Assembly: GCA_027459725.1 (NCBI GenBank)
Contig: DAIDHK010000006.1
Coordinates: 1,895-65,894, forward strand
Length of the DNA: 64,000 nt
Source of the DNA: Candidatus Levyibacteriota bacterium
GTDB lineage: Bacteria > Patescibacteriota > Microgenomatia > Levybacterales > UBA12049
Direction of reading: 5' to 3'
In this document: one piece after another, positions 14,361-53,194 of the stretch
How the letters are laid out: each line of letters starts with the position of its first letter
Position numbering within the stretch: position 1 is the first letter of the stretch
Made by a program: the position numbers and the translations under genes
The notes under the pieces: generated by a model
The model's database searches: none
Told to the model about the DNA's origin: nothing
What the model saw: only the letters and a program-made list of their open reading frames with translations

Positions 14361-15659
14361 ATGCGAATTGAAGAATTAGAAAAAAAGATTTATGTTTGCT
14401 TGGATGAACTAGCACACGATGATGGTTTCAATGCCTCGGGAAAAAGTGAGGTTTTCGGCTGCATCTTCGGTCGGGATAGTTTCATTACTATATTAAAGCT
14501 TCTGCGGACTCTGAAAGTACGTCCGGATGGCAAATTACTGTCCACTTGCAAGAAGAGTTTACTCAAACATATAGAGTTGCAGGGAAAAAATTTAAACATC
14601 GAGAGTGGGGAACAGCTAGGGAAATTTATTCATGAATATAGAGTAGACAAATATGAAAGATTAACCGCTCGTAGAAAACCTTGGTATGTCTATCCGGACA
14701 AAATATTGCGTAATTACGACAGTATAGATGCTACACCGCTGGGTTTGATCGCGATTTATCGTTATTGGGAGTTGACCAATGATGGCCATTTCTTACTAAC
14801 TGTTTTACCTTCTGTCGAAAAAGGTTTGAACTGGATTATGTCTTATGGGGATATGGATAAGGATTATCTGCTGGAATATTCTTTACCTGCAGAGCGTCTC
14901 CATGGAGGTCTTGCAGTTCAATCCTGGGCTGACTCTATTCCATCTCTAGCTGATACAGCAGGAAAGTTACCTGATTACCCTATAGCACCCGTAGAGGTAC
15001 AGGGTATAGCGTGGTTAGCTCTCAGATTATGGTCTAATTATTTTTCCGGTGCTTATAAAGAGACTCAAAATATCCGGTTTAGTAAAAAACTAAGATTATT
15101 TGCAGATAAAATGAAAAAGCGTTTTAATAGAATGTTTTTAATGAGCACCTCTGAGGGTTTATTTCTTGCTCAAGCATTGGATGGACATAAAAGACAAGTC
15201 AGAACAGTAACATCACATCCTCTGATTTGTCTGTGGTCGGCCATTGAAGAAAATGATCACTATGAATCAATAATTGATGAAGTGTATATAAATTCAATCG
15301 TACATCGTGCGTTTGAAACGGATTTATTTGTCCCTGGTGCGGGAATGCGTACTATGAGCACTAAATCATCGACATTTGATCCAACTGAGGCTTCTTATCA
15401 TAATGGCAGCTTCTGGCCTATGCTTAATGGTTTGATTATTGAAGGTTTGCATAATTTTGATTATTTTACAGAGGCAGCTAAATTGAGTAATGCTAGCTTA
15501 TCTGCACTGCAGTATTTTGGTCTGCCTATTGAATTATACATTCAAAATGAGGGTAAATTTTCAATTTACAGAAATCCCCTCAGCGGTCAGCAAAGCTGTT
15601 TAAATCAGGCGTGGTCAGCTGCTTCTGCATATGATTTATTGCTTTCTGTGATAAAATAA
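14361..15659 (+). CDS. Six-hairpin glycosidase, amylo-alpha-1,6-glucosidase (GDE_C)/GH63-like
   Basis: 432 aa; DATPLGLIAIYRYWELTNDGHFL and YHNGSFWPMLNGLIIEGL are characteristic of debranching-enzyme-like or mannosyl/glucosyl-glycerate hydrolase-like (alpha/alpha)6 barrels. Confidence 0.6.
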   Translation: MRIEELEKKIYVCLDELAHDDGFNASGKSEVFGCIFGRDSFITILKLLRTLKVRPDGKLLSTCKKSLLKHIELQGKNLNIESGEQLGKFIHEYRVDKYERLTARRKPWYVYPDKILRNYDSIDATPLGLIAIYRYWELTNDGHFLLTVLPSVEKGLNWIMSYGDMDKDYLLEYSLPAERLHGGLAVQSWADSIPSLADTAGKLPDYPIAPVEVQGIAWLALRLWSNYFSGAYKETQNIRFSKKLRLFADKMKKRFNRMFLMSTSEGLFLAQALDGHKRQVRTVTSHPLICLWSAIEENDHYESIIDEVYINSIVHRAFETDLFVPGAGMRTMSTKSSTFDPTEASYHNGSFWPMLNGLIIEGLHNFDYFTEAAKLSNASLSALQYFGLPIELYIQNEGKFSIYRNPLSGQQSCLNQAWSAASAYDLLLSVIK

Positions 15660-46742: not shown

Positions 46743-46831
46743 CGATATAAATTTAAACAGAGGTATAAGCTGAGAGGGTAAGGTCTAAGAAAATTCTCTT
46801 ATTGCAAACTACTTATGTCTTTTACTTATCT

Positions 46832-48157
46832 ATGTCCACTATTAAAGTTCCTCCACATAATGAAGAAGCAGAACAGAGTGTTTTAGGTGCAATTCTGATA
46901 GATAAAGAGGCAATTTCAGTGGTCTCGGGAATTCTCAGACCTGAACATTTTTATAGCGATCTTCATGCTTTAATTTATATAGCCATGTTGGATATTCATG
47001 AGGAGAGAAAGCCAATAGACGTTCTGACAGTTTCGGCACAGATAAAAAAACATGATAAAAATAAAACAGTTAGAAGTTCATACCTTAATGAGCTGGTCAA
47101 TGCAGTTCCTACTGCTGCCAATGTTGAAGAATACTCTCATTTGGTGAAAGATTTAGCTACAAAAAGAGCTCTAATTCACGCAGCATCAGAAATAGCCGAA
47201 TTAGGTTTTGAAGAAGATAAGGAGGTAAAAGATTTGCTTGATCGGGCAGAGTCGAGCATTTTTACTATCTCTCAAAGCAGTATCAAAAGAGATTTTATTG
47301 CCATTAAGGATACTTTGACAGAAAGTTTTGATCGTTTGGATGAATTACATCGTTTAGGAGAGGGATTAAGAGGAACAAAAACGGGCTTTTCTGATTTAGA
47401 TCGTATTTTATCAGGTATGCAAAAATCCAATCTGCTCATATTAGCAGCTCGACCTGGACAAGGGAAAACAGCACTGGTAGTGAACATAGCTCAGTTTATA
47501 GGTGTGATGGAAAAAAAAGCCGTGGCAATTTTCTCTTTGGAAATGAGTAAAGAAGAACTGGTTGATCGTTTAATGGTTGGTCAGGCAGATATCGATGCTT
47601 GGAAACAAAAAACTGGACGTTTGAATGAGGAAGACTGGACAAAACTATCGAACGCAATGGGTGAACTTGCCGAGGCACCTATTTTTATCGATGATACCCC
47701 TGGTATTTCTATTGCCGAGATGCGTAGTAAGGCGCGTAGGTTACAACTGGAGCATAAAGATTTAAGTTTGATAATCGTGGACTATTTACAGTTGGTGGAT
47801 CCTGGACAAAAATTTGAAGGACGTGTACAGGAAGTAGCCCATATCTCAAAGTCATTGAAAAATCTAGCTCGTGAGCTAAATGTGCCAGTTTTGGCTGCAT
47901 CACAGTTATCTCGTGCAGTTGAGCAGAGGACTGATCGTAAACCTCAATTAGCCGATTTACGCGAATCAGGCACAATTGAGCAGGATGCAGATGTGGTTAT
48001 GTTCATTTATCGGCCCGACATAGAAGGTAATCCCATTAACATTCCTACTAAATTATTGATAGCTAAACATCGCAATGGAGCTACTGGAGAAATTGATTTA
48101 TTGTTCCGGGGTGATCGTATCAAGTTCTACAGTGTTGAGAGACAGCAACAGGTATAA
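46832..48157 (+). CDS. dnaB: Replicative DNA helicase
   Basis: PPHNEEAEQSVLGAIL N-terminus; Walker A ARPGQGKTA, Walker B LIIVDYLQL, arginine finger region. Start taken at the ATG at 46832. Confidence 0.9.
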   Translation: MSTIKVPPHNEEAEQSVLGAILIDKEAISVVSGILRPEHFYSDLHALIYIAMLDIHEERKPIDVLTVSAQIKKHDKNKTVRSSYLNELVNAVPTAANVEEYSHLVKDLATKRALIHAASEIAELGFEEDKEVKDLLDRAESSIFTISQSSIKRDFIAIKDTLTESFDRLDELHRLGEGLRGTKTGFSDLDRILSGMQKSNLLILAARPGQGKTALVVNIAQFIGVMEKKAVAIFSLEMSKEELVDRLMVGQADIDAWKQKTGRLNEEDWTKLSNAMGELAEAPIFIDDTPGISIAEMRSKARRLQLEHKDLSLIIVDYLQLVDPGQKFEGRVQEVAHISKSLKNLARELNVPVLAASQLSRAVEQRTDRKPQLADLRESGTIEQDADVVMFIYRPDIEGNPINIPTKLLIAKHRNGATGEIDLLFRGDRIKFYSVERQQQV

Positions 48158-48287
48158 CAGCAGTTTTCCGCATTTAGCATTTTTGTCATTGTTGTCACCT
48201 TCATGTCAGGGAAATTACAGTAACTGTAATAAAAATGTCTATTTAAGGTCAAGTAAATTAATTATTTTTATTACAAAATACCTTTGC

Positions 48288-49349
48288 ATGATAGAAGGTA
48301 AAATTACACCCACACAAGTTGCAACCTTAGCTGCTCAAGATCATAGAGTCGGCTTATCATTTAATAATAAATTATATGGTGGAGTTAGTGGTGATGTAGT
48401 ACACGAAGGCTACTTACAACATTCTTTATCTCATGACAGACAAAAAGTAGTAATAAAAGTAGGCCCTGGAGTGGGAAATCGAGAAGTAACAGCGGCTAGG
48501 CGTATACATGCTCAAGCTCCTTCATTTCCTTTGATACAAGATTTACTTTCAGGATATGATTATGTAGTATATCCTTATTTATCAGGCGATACAATTGACC
48601 AAAGAGTAAGGGCAGGAGTTCCTGAATCAACAGAGGAATTCAGTATATTTGCCAGATTACACGCTCAGCTTTGGGAACAAACGCAAAAAGATGGAATATC
48701 AGTTTTAGATGGTTATCCTAAGAAATTGGAACAGACCAAAGAAATTCTATATAAGCTTGCGCTCAAGGATAATGATGGCAAAGAAATACCCGTTGCTGAT
48801 ATTGCTCATAGAGACTGGAGAGTAAATGGTAGGTCTATAGGTAGGTTAGAAGATGTGATTGATACGACTTCGGCAAATATTAGAAAGTCAGGTATGGGTG
48901 TTTTGACTCATGGTGATGAAGGAGCAGGGAATGCAATAAAAGAAAAAAATAGTGGAGACATAATTTTTATTGATCATGGATCGGCAGGGGTCAGGGCACC
49001 AGAAGAAGCAATTGCAAAAATTCTCTTGTGGTTTGATGCGACTAATGTCAATGGTAGGGGATATTCATTAAATTTGAATCCAAAAGGGGTAGAATTGCAA
49101 ACCAAAGAACAAACCAAACCGCATATTCACAGATCTGTTGCAGCAGCACAAACAGCATTGCAACCCTATCTCAAAGACCTTTCTTCTGATTCAGCGATTT
49201 CATCTTATATGATGGTTTATCTTTGGAGAGAGTTGCACTGGCTGGAGCGAAGAGGAAGGCAGGATGCGATGCCGTATTTACTAGCAAAATCTTTATCATT
49301 TGCGCCTGAGTTGCAGACTTCAGGTAGAGGACGTAGCAGCTATATTTAG
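48288..49349 (+). CDS. Protein-kinase-like-fold small-molecule kinase (APH/choline-kinase family)
   Basis: KLYGGVSGDVV (glycine-rich loop equivalent), VVIKVGPG (beta3 Lys), THGDEGAGNAI (HGDxxxxN catalytic loop), IFIDHGSAG (DFG-equivalent IDxG). Start taken at the first ATG after the dnaB stop. Confidence 0.5.
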   Translation: MIEGKITPTQVATLAAQDHRVGLSFNNKLYGGVSGDVVHEGYLQHSLSHDRQKVVIKVGPGVGNREVTAARRIHAQAPSFPLIQDLLSGYDYVVYPYLSGDTIDQRVRAGVPESTEEFSIFARLHAQLWEQTQKDGISVLDGYPKKLEQTKEILYKLALKDNDGKEIPVADIAHRDWRVNGRSIGRLEDVIDTTSANIRKSGMGVLTHGDEGAGNAIKEKNSGDIIFIDHGSAGVRAPEEAIAKILLWFDATNVNGRGYSLNLNPKGVELQTKEQTKPHIHRSVAAAQTALQPYLKDLSSDSAISSYMMVYLWRELHWLERRGRQDAMPYLLAKSLSFAPELQTSGRGRSSYI

Positions 49350-49356
49350 TGAGATT

Positions 49357-50373
49357 ATGTGGCAAGAACAAAACTCATTTATACCTAATGTCAGTGAATC
49401 TATTAATCCACGAACAGCATTATGGACTATAAATACACATCATGATATATCAGAGGTAATTGATCAACTGAGTAGTGATCTTAATAAAGTCAGCATTGTC
49501 GGATTTGATCTGGATGGTACAGTTTTAGGAAATGGAATAATTTTCCCGGGTAGTGGTATGGCATCTCTAAATGAAAAAGGTAAAAAGGTAACCATAGTTA
49601 GTGGTGCTGGGCCAGTGAGTATTAGAAAAAAAATAGTTGGAGCAGGACAGATTTTACGAGGAGATAAGAGGTTGGTGGAAATACCTTTTGCTGCTAACGA
49701 AGGATCTCAAATCTTTCATGCAGGAGCTTTAGATGGAGATCTAAGTCCAAATCATTTATTATATGAACAAGAAATCTCTTCACATGGAACGAGAGAGTTA
49801 TCAAGTTTTGCTCATGAATATCAAGATTTTGTTGACTTTTATGGTTTTTATCCCTCAGGTAGAACATCAGACCCTTTTAATTACGTTCTTTATACGAGAA
49901 GGGATTTGATGAGAGAAAAACTCATAGAAAAATATCCTAAATCAGTGATTACGGAAGATTTATTATACTTTTTAACTTTGTTAGAAGAACAAGGAGCATC
50001 TAAATTTATTGCTAAGTCTCAAAACGAGGATACTTTTAGAAAAGTTGATGCTTTTCATCATTTGCGTGGTGTAAATAACGAAGGGTTTTATAATATAGTA
50101 GACCGTGATGTTAATAAACTTACTGGATTGATTAAATTAGCAGGCTTGCATCATATGAGGACCGTTGCAAGTGAAGAATTAGCATATTTTGGTAATGACT
50201 GGAATGATAGAGAAGCACTGGTGGGGGCTAAGGTGGGATTTATAGTCGATTCAAAATCTACAATTAGAGATAGAATGGTCCCAGATTTATTGGCTTCTAA
50301 AAAAGGTGGACATCTTGTTGTACTTAATCCATCTTTAGTAAACGATTGCTTAACAGGAATTGCTAAGATATAA
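49357..50373 (+). CDS. HAD-superfamily phosphatase, Cof/IIB-like with large cap
   Basis: IVGFDLDGTV (motif I DxDGT) and YFGNDWNDREAL (motif IV GDxxND). Confidence 0.6.
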   Translation: MWQEQNSFIPNVSESINPRTALWTINTHHDISEVIDQLSSDLNKVSIVGFDLDGTVLGNGIIFPGSGMASLNEKGKKVTIVSGAGPVSIRKKIVGAGQILRGDKRLVEIPFAANEGSQIFHAGALDGDLSPNHLLYEQEISSHGTRELSSFAHEYQDFVDFYGFYPSGRTSDPFNYVLYTRRDLMREKLIEKYPKSVITEDLLYFLTLLEEQGASKFIAKSQNEDTFRKVDAFHHLRGVNNEGFYNIVDRDVNKLTGLIKLAGLHHMRTVASEELAYFGNDWNDREALVGAKVGFIVDSKSTIRDRMVPDLLASKKGGHLVVLNPSLVNDCLTGIAKI

Positions 50374-50380
50374 CTTAAAT

Positions 50381-51094
50381 ATGGCAAAACTTGAACAAAC
50401 TCTTTGGATTATTGATATTGATGGAACGATCATTAATGTGCATAAAAATCAAGTTCCTGCCTGGACAGAAGCACTACAACAGGCTTTTTCTATAACGCCT
50501 GATGAGTCGACTCTGGTGAGTTATTTCGGTAAACCATTTCAATCAGTTCTTAAAAATGTGGCGATGTATTATTCTATTTCAGAAAAAGAAATATCTAAAA
50601 AAGCGAAGTTTGCAGAAGAAATTTATGTCTCCTCAGTAAACAAACATTTGAAAAAGACAGGAGGTAGTATCCTGCCTGGAGCTGAAAACTTTCTGAGGTT
50701 ATTAGGAGAAAATGGAGCAAAAAGAGCCATTGCTACAGGTAATCCCCGACGTGAAGGTGAGTCTAAGCTTATATATTTTGACTTACTCAAATATTTCGAT
50801 ATTACTGTTTTTAGTGACAATCGGAAAGAGAGAATTGAAATGGTTGAGGAAGCAATTAAACAGGCAGAAAAGAAATATCATTTAAAATTAAGATCGCATC
50901 CGAAAAGAGTTGTTATTATAGGAGATTCTATTCATGATATTGAAAGCGCTAAGCTTATCTCTGCTTCAAGTATAGCAGTTACAACTGGTCATACTTCAAA
51001 ATATAAATTACAAATTGCTGGTGCTGATATGGTTCTCTCTGGTTTGAGCGATTTTTCATCAATTAAACAAAAGGTTGCATCACTAATAATTTAA
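50381..51094 (+). CDS. HAD-superfamily hydrolase, subfamily IA
   Basis: IIDIDGTI (motif I), AIATGN (motif II), VIIGDSIHDIESA (motif IV). Confidence 0.7.
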   Translation: MAKLEQTLWIIDIDGTIINVHKNQVPAWTEALQQAFSITPDESTLVSYFGKPFQSVLKNVAMYYSISEKEISKKAKFAEEIYVSSVNKHLKKTGGSILPGAENFLRLLGENGAKRAIATGNPRREGESKLIYFDLLKYFDITVFSDNRKERIEMVEEAIKQAEKKYHLKLRSHPKRVVIIGDSIHDIESAKLISASSIAVTTGHTSKYKLQIAGADMVLSGLSDFSSIKQKVASLII

Positions 51095-51179
51095 ATTTAC
51101 ATTCATAATTAGAATGACCCTGACATGAATCTGACATGTCTTGTAAGTTTCTCGTAACTTTTATACAATTGATCATCGC

Positions 51180-52475
51180 ATGGTCATTGAAGCTACATAT
51201 CCTATTAATTTTCGCAAAGCTGATGCTGCAAGTTTGGGTGAACAAATCAAAAATAGACAATCAGTAGTTTTAATTGGTTTGAAAAGAGTAGGTATCAGTA
51301 ATTTTTTGCGATTTTTTCTCTACCATAAGGATATTCTCTCCACGTATTTAGGTGCAGAAGAAAATCATTTGTTTATTCCTGTTGACTTGCATGATTTAAT
51401 TGAAAGGGAGCTTTTCCCCTTTTGGGTACTTACTTTAAAACGTGTTTGCGATTCAGCCATGGAGTTGCCTCTGGACGATAAGGTCAAGAAACAAATTGAA
51501 TCACAATTCCTCAACAGTATACAAACCAGGAATACATTTATTGTTTTTGATTCTGTGCGCAGTGTGATTATGAAACTATGTGAGTTTGGTTACATGCCTA
51601 CTATTTTCTTCATTCGTTTTGATCGTATGGAGGATGTCATGAATCAAGAATTTTTCTCCAACATTCAAGGACTAAGAGATGCAACGCATCAGCGTTTGTC
51701 CTATGTTTTTACGAGTTTTAAAAGTCTGGATATTTTGTTTCCCGAAATATTTAATAAACAGGCTCTAAATGTGTTTGCTAAAAATATATATCTACAGCCA
51801 GCAGAGGCCAAAGATATTGAAATAATTTATGAGACATATAGTGCAAAATATACTAAGCGAGACTTAAACAAAATAAAGAAGGATTTACTTAATTTGACAG
51901 ATGGTTATGTTCAATTTCTTCAATTAGGGTTGATTGCTCTGCATGAAAAACAATATCCTAAACTTTTACCAGAGGAATTATATGATTTGTTGTTGAATGA
52001 CGAAAGATTTATGCTACAGTCGGAAGAGATTTGGGAAAGTCTGTTACATACCGAGCGTGAAATTCTTCACAAAGTTAGCAACAATGAAGAACTTACTAAT
52101 ATTGAAATGGAAGAAGCTAAATATTTATTTGAAACCGGTATAATAAGGAGGAACTCTAGCCAATTAGAAATTTTCAGCCCCTTATTTCAAGGCTACATCT
52201 CGAGTCTAAAAAATCATACAACTTTAAAGGATGATTCAATAGAATTTTCTAAGAAAGAAAACCAATTGTTAAATCTACTTCTACAATATAAAGAGAATAT
52301 TGTTGATAGAGATCAGATTATCGAATTGGTTTGGCCCGAAGTGGAGTCTTTTGGTGTGACAGACTGGGCGATAGATAGATTAGTCTCTCGATTACGGCGA
52401 AAATTAAGAATGCAAAGATCTAATTACAAGATCAGTACAATCCGCACCCGGGGATACAAACTGACTGTGGTATAG
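51180..52475 (+). CDS. Putative regulator: N-terminal P-loop-NTPase-like domain (degenerate Walker A) + helical region + C-terminal OmpR/PhoB-type winged-helix DNA-binding domain
   Basis: VVLIGLKRVGISNF (GxxxxG[I]S, the Walker A Lys is missing), FFIRFDRMEDV (Walker-B-like). The C-terminal ENQLLNLLLQYKENIVDRDQIIELVW...AIDRLVSRLRRKL...TIRTRGYKL fits the trans_reg_C consensus. Confidence 0.5.
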   Translation: MVIEATYPINFRKADAASLGEQIKNRQSVVLIGLKRVGISNFLRFFLYHKDILSTYLGAEENHLFIPVDLHDLIERELFPFWVLTLKRVCDSAMELPLDDKVKKQIESQFLNSIQTRNTFIVFDSVRSVIMKLCEFGYMPTIFFIRFDRMEDVMNQEFFSNIQGLRDATHQRLSYVFTSFKSLDILFPEIFNKQALNVFAKNIYLQPAEAKDIEIIYETYSAKYTKRDLNKIKKDLLNLTDGYVQFLQLGLIALHEKQYPKLLPEELYDLLLNDERFMLQSEEIWESLLHTEREILHKVSNNEELTNIEMEEAKYLFETGIIRRNSSQLEIFSPLFQGYISSLKNHTTLKDDSIEFSKKENQLLNLLLQYKENIVDRDQIIELVWPEVESFGVTDWAIDRLVSRLRRKLRMQRSNYKISTIRTRGYKLTVV

Positions 52476-52476
52476 T

Positions 52477-52920
52477 TTATCTGTTGATTGCCTTGTAAAC
52501 AGGAGAGAGCATTATGATAATTAGTTTTTCTATAAAAAAACTAAATAATACAAAACCAATAATCATTCCACTCACTGCGATTAGTTTATTTAAATTGGAG
52601 ATTTCATTGCCTTGCTCTCGGTGGTGGCGTAAATACACTCCATAAATGACTTGTACAAAGATTATCAATCCTAAAATACATAGATAGAACCAACTAAGCC
52701 AGTTCTTTTGGTTAGTTAAGGCTTTATCCAGAGCTGTGAGCTGGGGGACTACAAAAAAAACAAATACAAGAGTAAATAAAGTTTCAATACTAGATAGAAT
52801 AAAAATGGCTGAAGAATATTTCTCCATTTTTCCAACGGTAGTGCGGATTCTAAAAAAGGAAGTTCGTTTCAAAAGAGACGTTTTAGTAACATTATTAGAG
52901 GCATTTGTTGTATTCTCCAT
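52477..52920 (-). CDS. Small membrane protein
   Basis: 147 aa, 3-4 TM. No motifs. Confidence 0.35.
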   Translation of the reverse strand: MENTTNASNNVTKTSLLKRTSFFRIRTTVGKMEKYSSAIFILSSIETLFTLVFVFFVVPQLTALDKALTNQKNWLSWFYLCILGLIIFVQVIYGVYLRHHREQGNEISNLNKLIAVSGMIIGFVLFSFFIEKLIIIMLSPVYKAINR

Positions 52921-53110
52921 AATTTTATTACAAGAATATACTTTTATAGTTTAAGCGATAAATTAGAAATAGACAACTACATAAAGTTACTATTTTTAAG
53001 CAGAAAATAAAAATGTAAAAGAATAATTAAGGGACAAGAAAATTTAAACTATATTTTATCTTGTTATATCGAAGAAGTCATTAACTTTAAATTTTGAATG
53101 TTAGGTCAAG

Positions 53111-53194
53111 TGCCGGGAGAGGGACTCGAACCCACACAGCCATTATAGCCAGTAGTTTTTGAGACTACCGCGTATACCATTCCGCCATCCCGGC
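53111..53194 (-). tRNA. tRNA-Leu (anticodon CAA), class II with long variable arm; 3' CCA not encoded
   Basis: Reverse complement reads GCCGGGATGGCGGAATGGTATACGCGGTAGTCTCAAAAACTACTGGCTATAATGGCTGTGTGGGTTCGAGTCCCTCTCCCGGCA. The acceptor stem is 7 bp, the anticodon loop is CUCAAAA, and the T-arm is GGTTCGAGTCC. The following bases are CTT. Confidence 0.85.

Follow-up and report, generated by a model that had tools for sequence, protein, structure and literature searches.

A degenerate P-loop regulator beside a putative kinase/two-phosphatase module in Candidatus Levyibacteriota, with candidate operator boxes and links to sugar-phosphate genes

A kinase and a phosphatase share one polypeptide in PFK-2/FBPase-2 and in T4 polynucleotide kinase-phosphatase, which pair a P-loop kinase with a histidine phosphatase or a HAD domain. 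Among described regulators, the STAND proteins MalT/LAL and AfsR (SARP + NOD + TPR) carry DNA-binding domains of different types, LuxR-type at the C-terminus of MalT and OmpR-type at the N-terminus of AfsR, and archaeal Walker-type ATPases (PDB 2qen, PAB2304, and 2fna, SSO1545; PF01637-type) have a C-terminal winged helix. The pho box of E. coli PhoB is built from the repeat CTGTCAT. For PhoP, 7-bp direct repeats with a 4-bp spacer and an 11-bp period are reported (PMC4832192), and in the AmgK-MupP-MurU system an APH-fold small-molecule kinase is found together with a PGP-like HAD-IA phosphatase (PMC5371407). Here, we compare these systems with a four-gene cluster of Candidatus Levyibacteriota that lies in a 64-kb window (the whole stretch of DNA analysed, 64,000 nucleotides, to which all coordinates refer; features are on the plus strand unless stated).

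The four open reading frames lie on one strand downstream of dnaB (46802-48157), where the sequence-only reading had placed them: G1 at 48288-49349 (353 aa), G2 at 49357-50373 (338 aa), G3 at 50381-51094 (237 aa) and G4 at 51180-52475 (431 aa). That reading described overlapping or abutting genes of a single operon, a picture that holds in part. With ATG starts, in agreement with the public gene calls, 7 nt lie between G1 and G2 and again between G2 and G3; these pairs overlap solely if upstream TTG starts are chosen, and G1 to G3 look like one unit on account of the short gaps. G4, however, does not abut G3, and since the 85-nt spacer between them holds a promoter-like site and two direct-repeat boxes, it is probably transcribed from its own promoter. 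No terminator-like site was found between G3 and G4, so read-through from one into the other is also possible. There are no glycolytic genes in the 64-kb window, a point against the sugar-phosphate reading given below.

G1 encodes a small-molecule kinase of a rare APH/ELK-fold family, which bears out the APH/choline-kinase fold first proposed for it: the bilobal kinase fold retains an intact catalytic core, comprising the beta3 Lys, the alphaC Glu, the HxDxxxxN loop and the Mg-binding Asp. Against Pfam PF01636 it scored 15.8 bits (E = 0.012), below the gathering score of 23.2; a search of the PDB with the family profile recovered APH(3') at E = 2e-3 only; and the APH(3') equivalog NF033068 gave 12.5 bits against a cut-off of 205. 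No curated kinase model was matched, and fructosamine-3-kinase (FN3K) appeared neither as a family-model match nor as the nearest structural neighbour. The structural neighbours include MTR kinase, maltokinase and NahK. The family is very rare, with 40 clusters among 1.84 billion representatives, and its members have recurring neighbours: a sugar-1-P nucleotidyltransferase lies directly upstream of the homologues in loci L006 (where it is GalU-like) and L090, and a phosphatase of the IMPase/FBPase family directly adjoins those in L006, L089 and L090. The nucleotidyltransferase neighbours liken G1 to the kinases of the AmgK-MupP-MurU system, NahK and MTR kinase, although identity to these is only about 12%.

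The assignments of G2 to Cof-type HAD-IIB phosphatases and of G3 to HAD-IA phosphatases were likewise upheld. G2, a divergent member of its class whose start codon is that of the public gene call, matches Hydrolase_3 at 8e-8 (32.7 bits; gathering score 20.9) and carries the catalytic motifs DLDGT and GNDWND (expected DxDGT and GDxxND). G3 matches HAD_2 at 9e-22 (78.5 bits; gathering score 23.8) and carries IDIDGT and GDSIHD (expected DxDGT and GDSxxD); its best match, a PGP model, reached 52.9 bits against a cut-off of 225, which leaves it outside the phosphoglycolate phosphatase equivalog, and the MupP model was absent among the best 25 of 29 families. With the FN3K, APH resistance, PGP and MupP models all unmatched or far below their cut-offs, the earlier failure to match the cluster to a known pathway still stands. 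PADLOC anti-phage defence models returned nothing at E ≤ 0.01 for the proteins of G1 to G4.

The cluster is conserved in relatives, and its absence there had been named beforehand as a result that would speak against it. In L092 the order is the same, with kinase and HAD-IIB fused in one protein, P0139 (718 aa, Hydrolase_3 at residues 433-680), the C-terminal half of which is 33% identical to G2 over 317 aa (E = 1e-39); P0139 is followed on the same strand by a HAD-IA 56% identical to G3 and then by a regulator 39% identical to G4. In L091, a G1-family kinase (36% identity) is divergent from a G4 homologue (41%) and adjoins a HAD-IA 30% identical to G3 (E = 6e-22). The view of G1 to G4 as a functional unit is thus strongly supported. 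P0139 recalls PFK-2/FBPase-2 and T4 polynucleotide kinase-phosphatase by analogy only, as its folds, APH/ELK and HAD-IIB, are unlike theirs; both P0139 and a HAD-PRK fusion that adjoins the regulator in L002 have genomic links to the FBP node. What lies between dnaB and the regulator varies: in the closest relative, L001, the slot is taken by another APH kinase, with 22% identity to G1, and by a HAD of the beta-phosphoglucomutase family.

G4 has the features of a one-component regulator. An N-terminal NTPase core fold, of archaeal-ATPase/STAND-like type, is followed by helical and winged-helix domains, which is the STAND/AAA+ architecture; this ATPase-like fold occupies the N-terminus in place of a Response_reg receiver domain with a phospho-acceptor Asp, for which no match was found in G4. 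The OmpR/PhoB-type winged-helix DNA-binding domain (52236-52463, residues 353-428) matches Trans_reg_C at 6e-16, PhoB models being the best (3e-11), and its profile matches in the PDB are ArlR, CovR, ToxR and PhoB. The degenerate P-loop G33-L-K-R-V-G-I39-S40 (51276-51299) falls, in the structure model, between strand 28-32 and helix 39-48, and it pairs position by position with the Walker A motif GIRRVGKS of 2qen, with Ile in place of the Walker A Lys. The Walker-B-like strand end F143-F-I-R-F-D148-R149 (51606-51626) comes after strand 138-145 of the model, and an Arg invariantly follows its Asp. Across 48 aligned homologues, G33, K35, R36, V37, G38, I39 and S40 of the first motif and F143, F147, D148 and R149 of the second are invariant, so that neither the Walker A pattern GxxxxGK[ST] nor the Walker B pattern hhhhD[DE] is found. 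The loss of the Walker A lysine and its pairing with an OmpR/PhoB-type domain, both noticed earlier, are therefore confirmed. Because of the invariant Ile in Walker A and the invariant Arg after the Walker B Asp, we infer that the N-terminal module does not hydrolyse nucleotide; to judge from these residues, it would serve as a ligand and oligomerisation switch and not as an ATPase. An ATP-driven switch is unlikely, since no family member keeps the Walker A Lys or the Walker B acidic residue.

Compared to the described STAND regulators, G4 is short at 431 aa, lacks a TPR/SUPR sensor arm, and has its OmpR-type domain at the C-terminus, not at the N-terminus as in AfsR. Its module has the fold of the archaeal Walker-type ATPases, but none of the Pfam or NCBIfam models of that family matched G4, which differs from them in its P-loop Ile, its C-terminal Trans_reg_C domain and its range in CPR bacteria. 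Unlike PhoB, it has neither a receiver domain nor a partner histidine kinase; signal input would come through the pseudo-NTPase module, and the genes under its control appear to serve sugar-phosphate metabolism instead of phosphate scavenging.

The resemblance to PhoB extends to the DNA. The candidate operator upstream of G4 (51118-51138, CTGACAT gaat CTGACAT) is likewise made up of 7-bp direct repeats, set 4 bp apart for an 11-bp period, and CTGACAT is one base different from the E. coli repeat. It sits immediately upstream of the -35 of a promoter-like site (51141-51169; TTGTAA, 17 nt, TACAAT) whose -10 ends 10 nt before the ATG; among 80 regulator genes, 78 have a TAnAAT that begins 12-21 nt before the start codon. 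Operator-like boxes also lie upstream of G1 on the minus strand (48184-48253): CTTGAC at 48253-48248, CTGACATG at 48209-48202 and GTGACAAC at 48198-48191, their starts 44 and 11 bp apart, with an off-phase TGACA at 48188-48184. The 12-mer CCCTGACATGAA has exactly two copies in the 64-kb window, at 51118-51129 on the plus strand and, inverted relative to that copy, at 48200-48211 on the minus strand, and a 24-nt inverted repeat joins the G1-upstream site to 51113-51136. With up to 3 mismatches allowed, the G4-upstream double box matches elsewhere in the 64 kb in the G1-upstream region only (two overlapping matches), a region that can be aligned to the L001 intergenic stretch between divergent kinase and regulator genes. 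A four-box phased scan of the window did not separate the G1 and G4 sites from chance hits; the longer shared motif alone does so.

Taken over 80 loci, the regions upstream of regulator genes are enriched in pho-box-like arrays, in which cYTGACa direct repeats follow one another with an 11-bp phasing. There are 1.45 boxes per 130 nt upstream of regulator genes and 0.21 in control windows, and box spacings are multiples of 11 in 42/65 cases compared with 15/89 in controls. Since related genomes contribute loci that are not independent, these figures overstate the count of independent events. In 1.13 Mb there are 32 occurrences of the strict double box; 31 share the strand of the regulator, and about 21 fall in the 170 nt that precede the regulator gene. 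Arrays are also present in L014, where one separates an APH kinase from PGI, in L037 upstream of class I FBA, and in L036 and L086 upstream of class V FBPase. Many regulator loci are without strict boxes, such as most of those with a DUF-890 gene directly upstream. The boxes also look like the sigma-70 -35 hexamer TTGACA, and a different factor could bind them.

Relatives of G4 are present in 214 species-representative genomes, the named records being Levybacteria or other Patescibacteria, and the best among the matches listed are full length at about 50% identity. A carbohydrate-phosphate gene lies within 6 ORFs upstream of the regulator in 37 of 78 loci; in 26 of the 78, no other gene of 150 aa or more comes between the two. 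The neighbours include non-orthologous FBPases (classes I, II and V) and FBAs (classes I and II), as well as PGK, PGI, hexokinase-like, Fsa/transaldolase, GH1, GH100 and GT20 genes. Sugar genes are found near the regulator in about half of the loci only. The G4-type regulator is a phylum-wide conserved element tied to sugar-phosphate genes elsewhere, a connection that the sequence-only reading did not contain.

On balance, we consider it probable from these sequence comparisons that G1 to G3 form a co-transcribed kinase/two-phosphatase module acting on a sugar or sugar phosphate, and that G4 controls both the module and itself. G4 would be the dedicated one-component transcription factor of G1 to G3, its PhoB-type winged helix binding the cYTGACa direct repeats head-to-tail, 11 bp apart. 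Because these repeats lie upstream of the G4 -35 and, inverted, over the G1 promoter region, G4, acting with either sign, would regulate itself and G1 to G3; its effector would probably be a phosphorylated metabolite. Sugars or sugar phosphates are the likeliest compounds for the G1 kinase and the G2 and G3 phosphatases to act on, since in other Levybacteria, across which the family is conserved, the regulator adjoins hexokinase-like genes and those for FBP aldolase, FBPase, PGK and PGI, and since individual loci have boxes in front of an FBP aldolase, FBPase or PGI gene. In one possible scheme, a phosphatase and an anomeric kinase would shift phosphate between positions or feed nucleotide-sugar synthesis.

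Vitamin or cofactor salvage would give the enzymes a different role, with G1 a vitamin kinase, thiamine-kinase-like or of another kind, G2 and G3 phosphatases of the Cof/YcsE type for trimming HMP-PP, FMN or PLP precursors, and G4 a regulator of salvage in an auxotrophic CPR cell. CPR bacteria are auxotrophs, ThiK has the APH fold, and Cof and YcsE are vitamin and cofactor phosphatases; the best NCBIfam matches of G2 are indeed the Cof subfamily (TIGR00099, 4e-7) and a YcsE-related riboflavin-metabolism phosphatase (5e-6). Both, however, score far below their curated cut-offs (29.7 vs 137 bits and 26.1 vs 220 bits), the phylum-wide neighbours of G4 are the sugar-phosphate genes and not vitamin genes, and those of G1 are sugar-1-P nucleotidyltransferases and IMPase/FBPase-family phosphatases, which makes salvage improbable.

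A specific version of the sugar hypothesis is cell-wall amino-sugar recycling of the AmgK/MupP/MurU type, in which the HAD-IA would take the 6-phosphate off MurNAc-6-P/GlcNAc-6-P, the APH-fold anomeric kinase would form the 1-phosphate and a nucleotidyltransferase would yield the UDP-sugar. We regard this as unlikely: the MurU match (121.6 vs a cut-off of 250) is outscored by generic sugar-1-P nucleotidyltransferase models, the L006 enzyme being GalU-like, and the window's cluster has no nucleotidyltransferase at all. Neither G1, with no curated kinase match, nor G3, with a PGP model far below cut-off as its best, points to this pathway, and the extra HAD-IIB, kinase-fused in L092, has no place in it.

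It is very unlikely that G1 modifies a xenobiotic or a peptide (APH antibiotic resistance or lanthipeptide-type phosphorylation) with the phosphatases and regulator as accessories, given its score against the APH(3') model, the absence of biosynthetic, precursor-peptide and transporter genes nearby, the fusion of the kinase to a HAD-IIB phosphatase in L092, its conservation beside housekeeping genes and the empty PADLOC search. That the genes are chance neighbours, G4 regulating something else and the shared motif being coincidental, is disfavoured and has scarcely any probability in our view: the variable dnaB-regulator slot and its different occupants in L001 would fit, but all four parts come together again in L092, one gene fusion included, even with regulators that are just 39% identical, L091 is a second recurrence, CCCTGACATGAA is common to the two promoter regions only, and the L001 replacement cassette is again kinase + HAD behind a homologous intergenic region.

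The proposed sugar-phosphate module under G4 control can be read more boldly, and we offer this as a long shot: the kinase and HAD-IIB, fused or adjacent, might make and destroy a dedicated regulatory phosphometabolite, with PFK-2/FBPase-2 and fructose-2,6-bisphosphate as the model, for which the dead P-loop of the G4 family might be the receptor. Levybacteria would then use a nucleotide-independent STAND switch, acting at the pho-box-like repeats, to set how the genes for FBP aldolase, FBPase, PGK and PGI are transcribed.

CPR/Patescibacteria have very few transcription factors, and the literature searched yielded no described regulon for them. The G4 family represents a phylum-conserved regulator for which both an operator and a regulon, the latter centred on the fructose-bisphosphate node, are predicted. 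As a natural STAND/archaeal-ATPase module that has lost both catalytic signatures yet stays under strong purifying selection, it offers a model for nucleotide-independent signalling, and the fusion of a rare APH-fold kinase family to HAD-IIB points to coupled kinase/phosphatase chemistry outside assigned pathways. Gaps are often noted in CPR glycolysis and nucleotide-sugar synthesis, and if the substrate is a sugar phosphate, the module could fill some of them. If G4 proteins do sense a phosphometabolite, the family would be the first master regulator of central carbon metabolism to be described in a CPR phylum.

The four genes lie downstream of dnaB (46802-48157) in a run on one strand that begins after it, in a window with a GC content of ~35%. 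Proteins of the window have homologues in Candidatus Levybacteria/Levyibacteriota or Patescibacteria group records, which places its origin in a CPR bacterium. The run comprises the kinase gene G1 (48288-49349), the HAD-IIB phosphatase gene G2 (ATG at 49357, end at 50373), the HAD-IA phosphatase gene G3 (ATG at 50381, end at 51094) and the regulator gene G4 (51180-52475). With the ATG starts of the public gene calls, the gaps are 7 nt at G1/G2 and 7 nt at G2/G3, and the tight packing described in the sequence-only reading therefore holds for these junctions but not for G3/G4, where the spacer is 85 nt; no terminator-like site was found between the latter two genes. An ORF for a multi-pass membrane protein of 147 aa (52477-52920, minus strand) is convergent with G4, lies 1 nt past its stop and is kept in the related loci L001 and L009 (139 aa), and beyond it lies a tRNA-Leu(CAA) gene (53110-53194, minus strand). 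Neither had a match in any family searched.

G4 has a Trans_reg_C domain at its C-terminus, and its N-terminal part had no Pfam match. In phmmer, LIGLKRVGISNFLRFFL of G4 was paired with LLGIRRVGKSSLLRAFL of 2qen, and an alignment of 48 homologues contained the invariant motifs G33-x-K35-R36-V37-G38-I39-S40 and F143...F147-D148-R149. Taken together, the 2qen alignment and this invariance indicate that, family-wide, Ile replaces the Walker A Lys and Arg follows the Walker B Asp. Two calls made from the sequence, the lost Walker A lysine and the OmpR/PhoB-type domain, were thus borne out, and G4 is a one-component regulator in which a STAND/archaeal-ATPase-like module is joined to a PhoB-type winged helix. 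Given the invariant Ile and Arg at the Walker positions, this module almost certainly does not hydrolyse ATP. The search with G4 yielded 1498 proteins at E ≤ 0.001, the best matches listed being full-length with ~50% identity, and relatives were present in 214 species-representative genomes. In the literature library searched, we found neither this family of regulators nor its operator described, nor any Levybacteria regulon. The Levybacteria-type regulator, in a Levybacteria-like syntenic setting, is also carried by many MAG records (L011, L016, L023-L031 and many more) whose titles read 'uncultured Gammaproteobacteria bacterium' or, in other cases, 'Candidatus Sulfotelmatobacter' or 'Acidiferrales'; these taxonomic labels are probably wrong.

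ORFs were called and clustered in 80 loci, 78 of which had upstream sequence. A carbohydrate-phosphate gene occurred within 6 ORFs upstream of the regulator in 37 of the 78, and in 26 of those 37 no other gene of 150 aa or more lay closer on the upstream side, the orientation being mostly divergent. Neighbours included PGK (21 loci), class II FBA (14), hexokinase-like genes (12) and class I FBPase (7), although related genomes are non-independent samples and such raw locus counts exceed the number of independent events. Further neighbours were class I FBA, GlpX-type and class V FBPases, PGI, Fsa/transaldolase, GH1, a GH100 invertase-like gene, a GT20 gene and an IMPase-family gene. The same regulator-adjacent position holds non-orthologous FBP aldolases (classes I and II) and FBPases (classes I, II and V) in different Levybacteria: FBPase_3 in L036/L086, class I aldolase and GlpX in L037/L087, and class II aldolase and class I FBPase in L004/L022 and others. 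This sharing of one position is hard to explain other than by a functional link between the regulator and these genes. In the window, a 432-aa ORF (14361-15659, plus strand) was weakly similar (26% over ~170 aa) to the GH100 invertase-like/GDE_C proteins encoded near the regulator gene in L053 and L084, and was the sole carbohydrate-related match to the regulator-neighbour set.

The regions upstream of the regulator genes carry a candidate operator built of cYTGACa-type boxes. In the 130 nt upstream, [CT]TGAC occurred 1.45 times per sequence compared to 0.21 in control windows, with 116 instances on the regulator's strand versus 31 on the opposite strand, and box spacings were 11, 22, 33 or 44 nt in 42 of 65 cases versus 15 of 89 control spacings. 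The strict double box YTGAC-N6-YTGAC was found 32 times in 1.13 Mb; 31 of these were on the regulator's strand and ~21 were no more than 170 nt upstream of a regulator gene. In a survey of the 160 nt preceding the regulator genes of L002, L004, L009-L088 and the window, a TAnAAT -10 element started 12–21 nt (mostly 12–14) ahead of the start codon in 78 of 80 genes, and no evident Shine-Dalgarno sequence was seen in the same regions. With a -10 element this near the start codon, the regulator genes probably give rise to mRNAs with little or no leader. The last box started 32–41 nt before the -10 element in 34 of 51 loci, a distance at which the boxes abut the -35. The repeat CTGACAT is one base off the E. 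coli pho-box repeat. The geometry also resembles that of OmpR/PhoB-family sites, since domains of this family are known to bind 7-bp direct repeats with a 4-bp spacer (PMC4832192). Box arrays were also observed away from the regulator gene: in L014 one lies between the genes for an APH kinase and PGI, in L037 one precedes class I FBA, and in L036 and L086 class V FBPase is preceded by one.

In the window, CTGACATgaatCTGACATg (51120-51138) is directly upstream of TTGTAA-17-TACAAT and G4, and the only other resemblance to this double box in the 64 kb was on the minus strand of the dnaB-G1 spacer. The 12-mer CCCTGACATGAA has exactly two copies in the window, at 48200-48211 (minus) and 51118-51129 (plus), sites that together make up a 24-nt inverted repeat bracketing G1-G3. 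Upstream of G1, the minus strand aligns with the intergenic region between the divergent kinase and regulator genes of L001; the window cassette is thus inverted relative to L001, with operator sequence retained on either side. At 48253-48248, the distal CTTGAC overlaps the stretch where the -35 of a G1 promoter would be expected. When the window was scanned with a phased four-box score, the true sites reached 28–29, a score that chance sites equalled. The G1 upstream region also contains a perfect AT-rich inverted repeat with 12-nt arms (TGTAATAAAAAT at 48225-48236 and ATTTTTATTACA at 48264-48275, with a 27-nt loop), which overlaps the likely -10. A riboswitch in the dnaB-G1 spacer was rejected, as the RNA fold was not significant (z = -1.9) and Rfam gave no family match in this or the G3-G4 spacer. 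Within G3, an 18-nt segment, TCCCCGACGTGAAGGTGA (50743-50760), is 89% complementary to the operator segment 48195-48212 and oriented like the G4-upstream boxes; its TGAC cores are broken, and it may be a chance or decayed site.

When the four-gene neighbourhood was sought in related genomes, it was found conserved in L092 and, in part, in L091. In L092, a 718-aa protein (P0139) fuses a G1-family kinase to a Hydrolase_3 domain sharing 33% identity with G2 (E = 1e-39), and is followed on the same strand by a HAD-IA phosphatase (56% to G3) and then a regulator (39% to G4). L091 has a G1-family kinase gene (36% identity) that diverges from the gene for the G4 homologue (41%) and adjoins a HAD-IA gene (30%, E = 6e-22). 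The closest relative, L001, has a regulator 73% identical to G4 and syntenic flanks, and its dnaB-regulator slot holds, on the opposite strand, an APH kinase 22% identical to G1 and a beta-phosphoglucomutase-family HAD; in view of these different enzymes, we rejected the L001 cassette as an orthologue of that in the window. The L002 slot holds a HAD-PRK fusion and a second HAD. The fusion (474 aa; 6448-7872 of L002, minus strand), directly divergent from the regulator, joins a HAD-IA phosphatase to a PRK/uridine-kinase-family P-loop kinase and is a second kinase-phosphatase fusion at the regulator-adjacent position, unrelated to P0139. Across these loci, pairing of a kinase with a HAD phosphatase next to a G4-type regulator is thus a recurring theme that includes non-orthologous genes.

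The HAD assignments made from the sequence also held, with G2 a divergent Cof-like HAD-IIB protein and G3 a HAD-IA protein, both with intact nucleophile motifs. The G1 family is rare yet real: an exhaustive HMMER search found only 40 relatives among 1.84 billion cluster representatives, and a word-indexed search yielded too few, with 3 proteins from G1 and 6 from the family profile. A metagenome contig scan revealed no relative of G1 (queried with the alignment of its closest homologues) or of G2, PDB sequence searches with either gave nothing useful, and the contig index held no exact match to the sequence of G4 or G2. A frameshifted G1-G2 fusion was ruled out, as the end of G1 coincides with that of stand-alone homologues and the G2 N-terminus is unlike the P0139 linker in the other frame. 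Beyond the catalytic residues, W129, Y143, K146, K244, Y311, R314 and R322 are invariant or nearly so in the full G1 family alignment; these basic and aromatic residues would fit an anionic, e.g. phosphorylated, substrate.

The fold of G1-G3 does not fix the substrate. We favour a sugar or sugar-phosphate kinase/phosphatase module, because the regulator associates with hexose-phosphate and FBP-node genes, because the kinase is fused to a phosphatase in L092 and because of the contexts of G1-family genes elsewhere. In L006 and L090, the order is a sugar-1-P nucleotidyltransferase, which is GalU-like in the former and generic in the latter, then the kinase, an IMPase/FBPase-family phosphatase and guanylate kinase, and L089 has the kinase, an IMPase-family phosphatase, a mannose-6-P-isomerase cupin domain, TrmB and GlmS. 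The nearest precedent is the AmgK/MupP route, in which a HAD-IA phosphatase acts with an APH-fold anomeric kinase (PMC5371407). G1-G3 matched no curated model for that or any other pathway, in agreement with the earlier failure to place the kinase/phosphatase/regulator set in a known one. Vitamin salvage is an unlikely rival to the sugar-phosphate reading, and a role for G1 as a xenobiotic or peptide kinase is a still less likely one. Chance juxtaposition of the cluster genes is very unlikely, given their arrangement in L092 and L091. A defence system was rejected, as PADLOC returned no matches.

Each component is of a known kind: the regulator is STAND-like and has an OmpR-type winged helix, the kinase has the APH fold and the phosphatases are HAD proteins. 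Within the library searched, the apparent novelty lies in the combination of domains around an invariantly dead P-loop, in the coupling of the kinase to HAD-IIB, and in a predicted pho-box-like operator that is linked, in a CPR phylum, to genes of central carbon metabolism.
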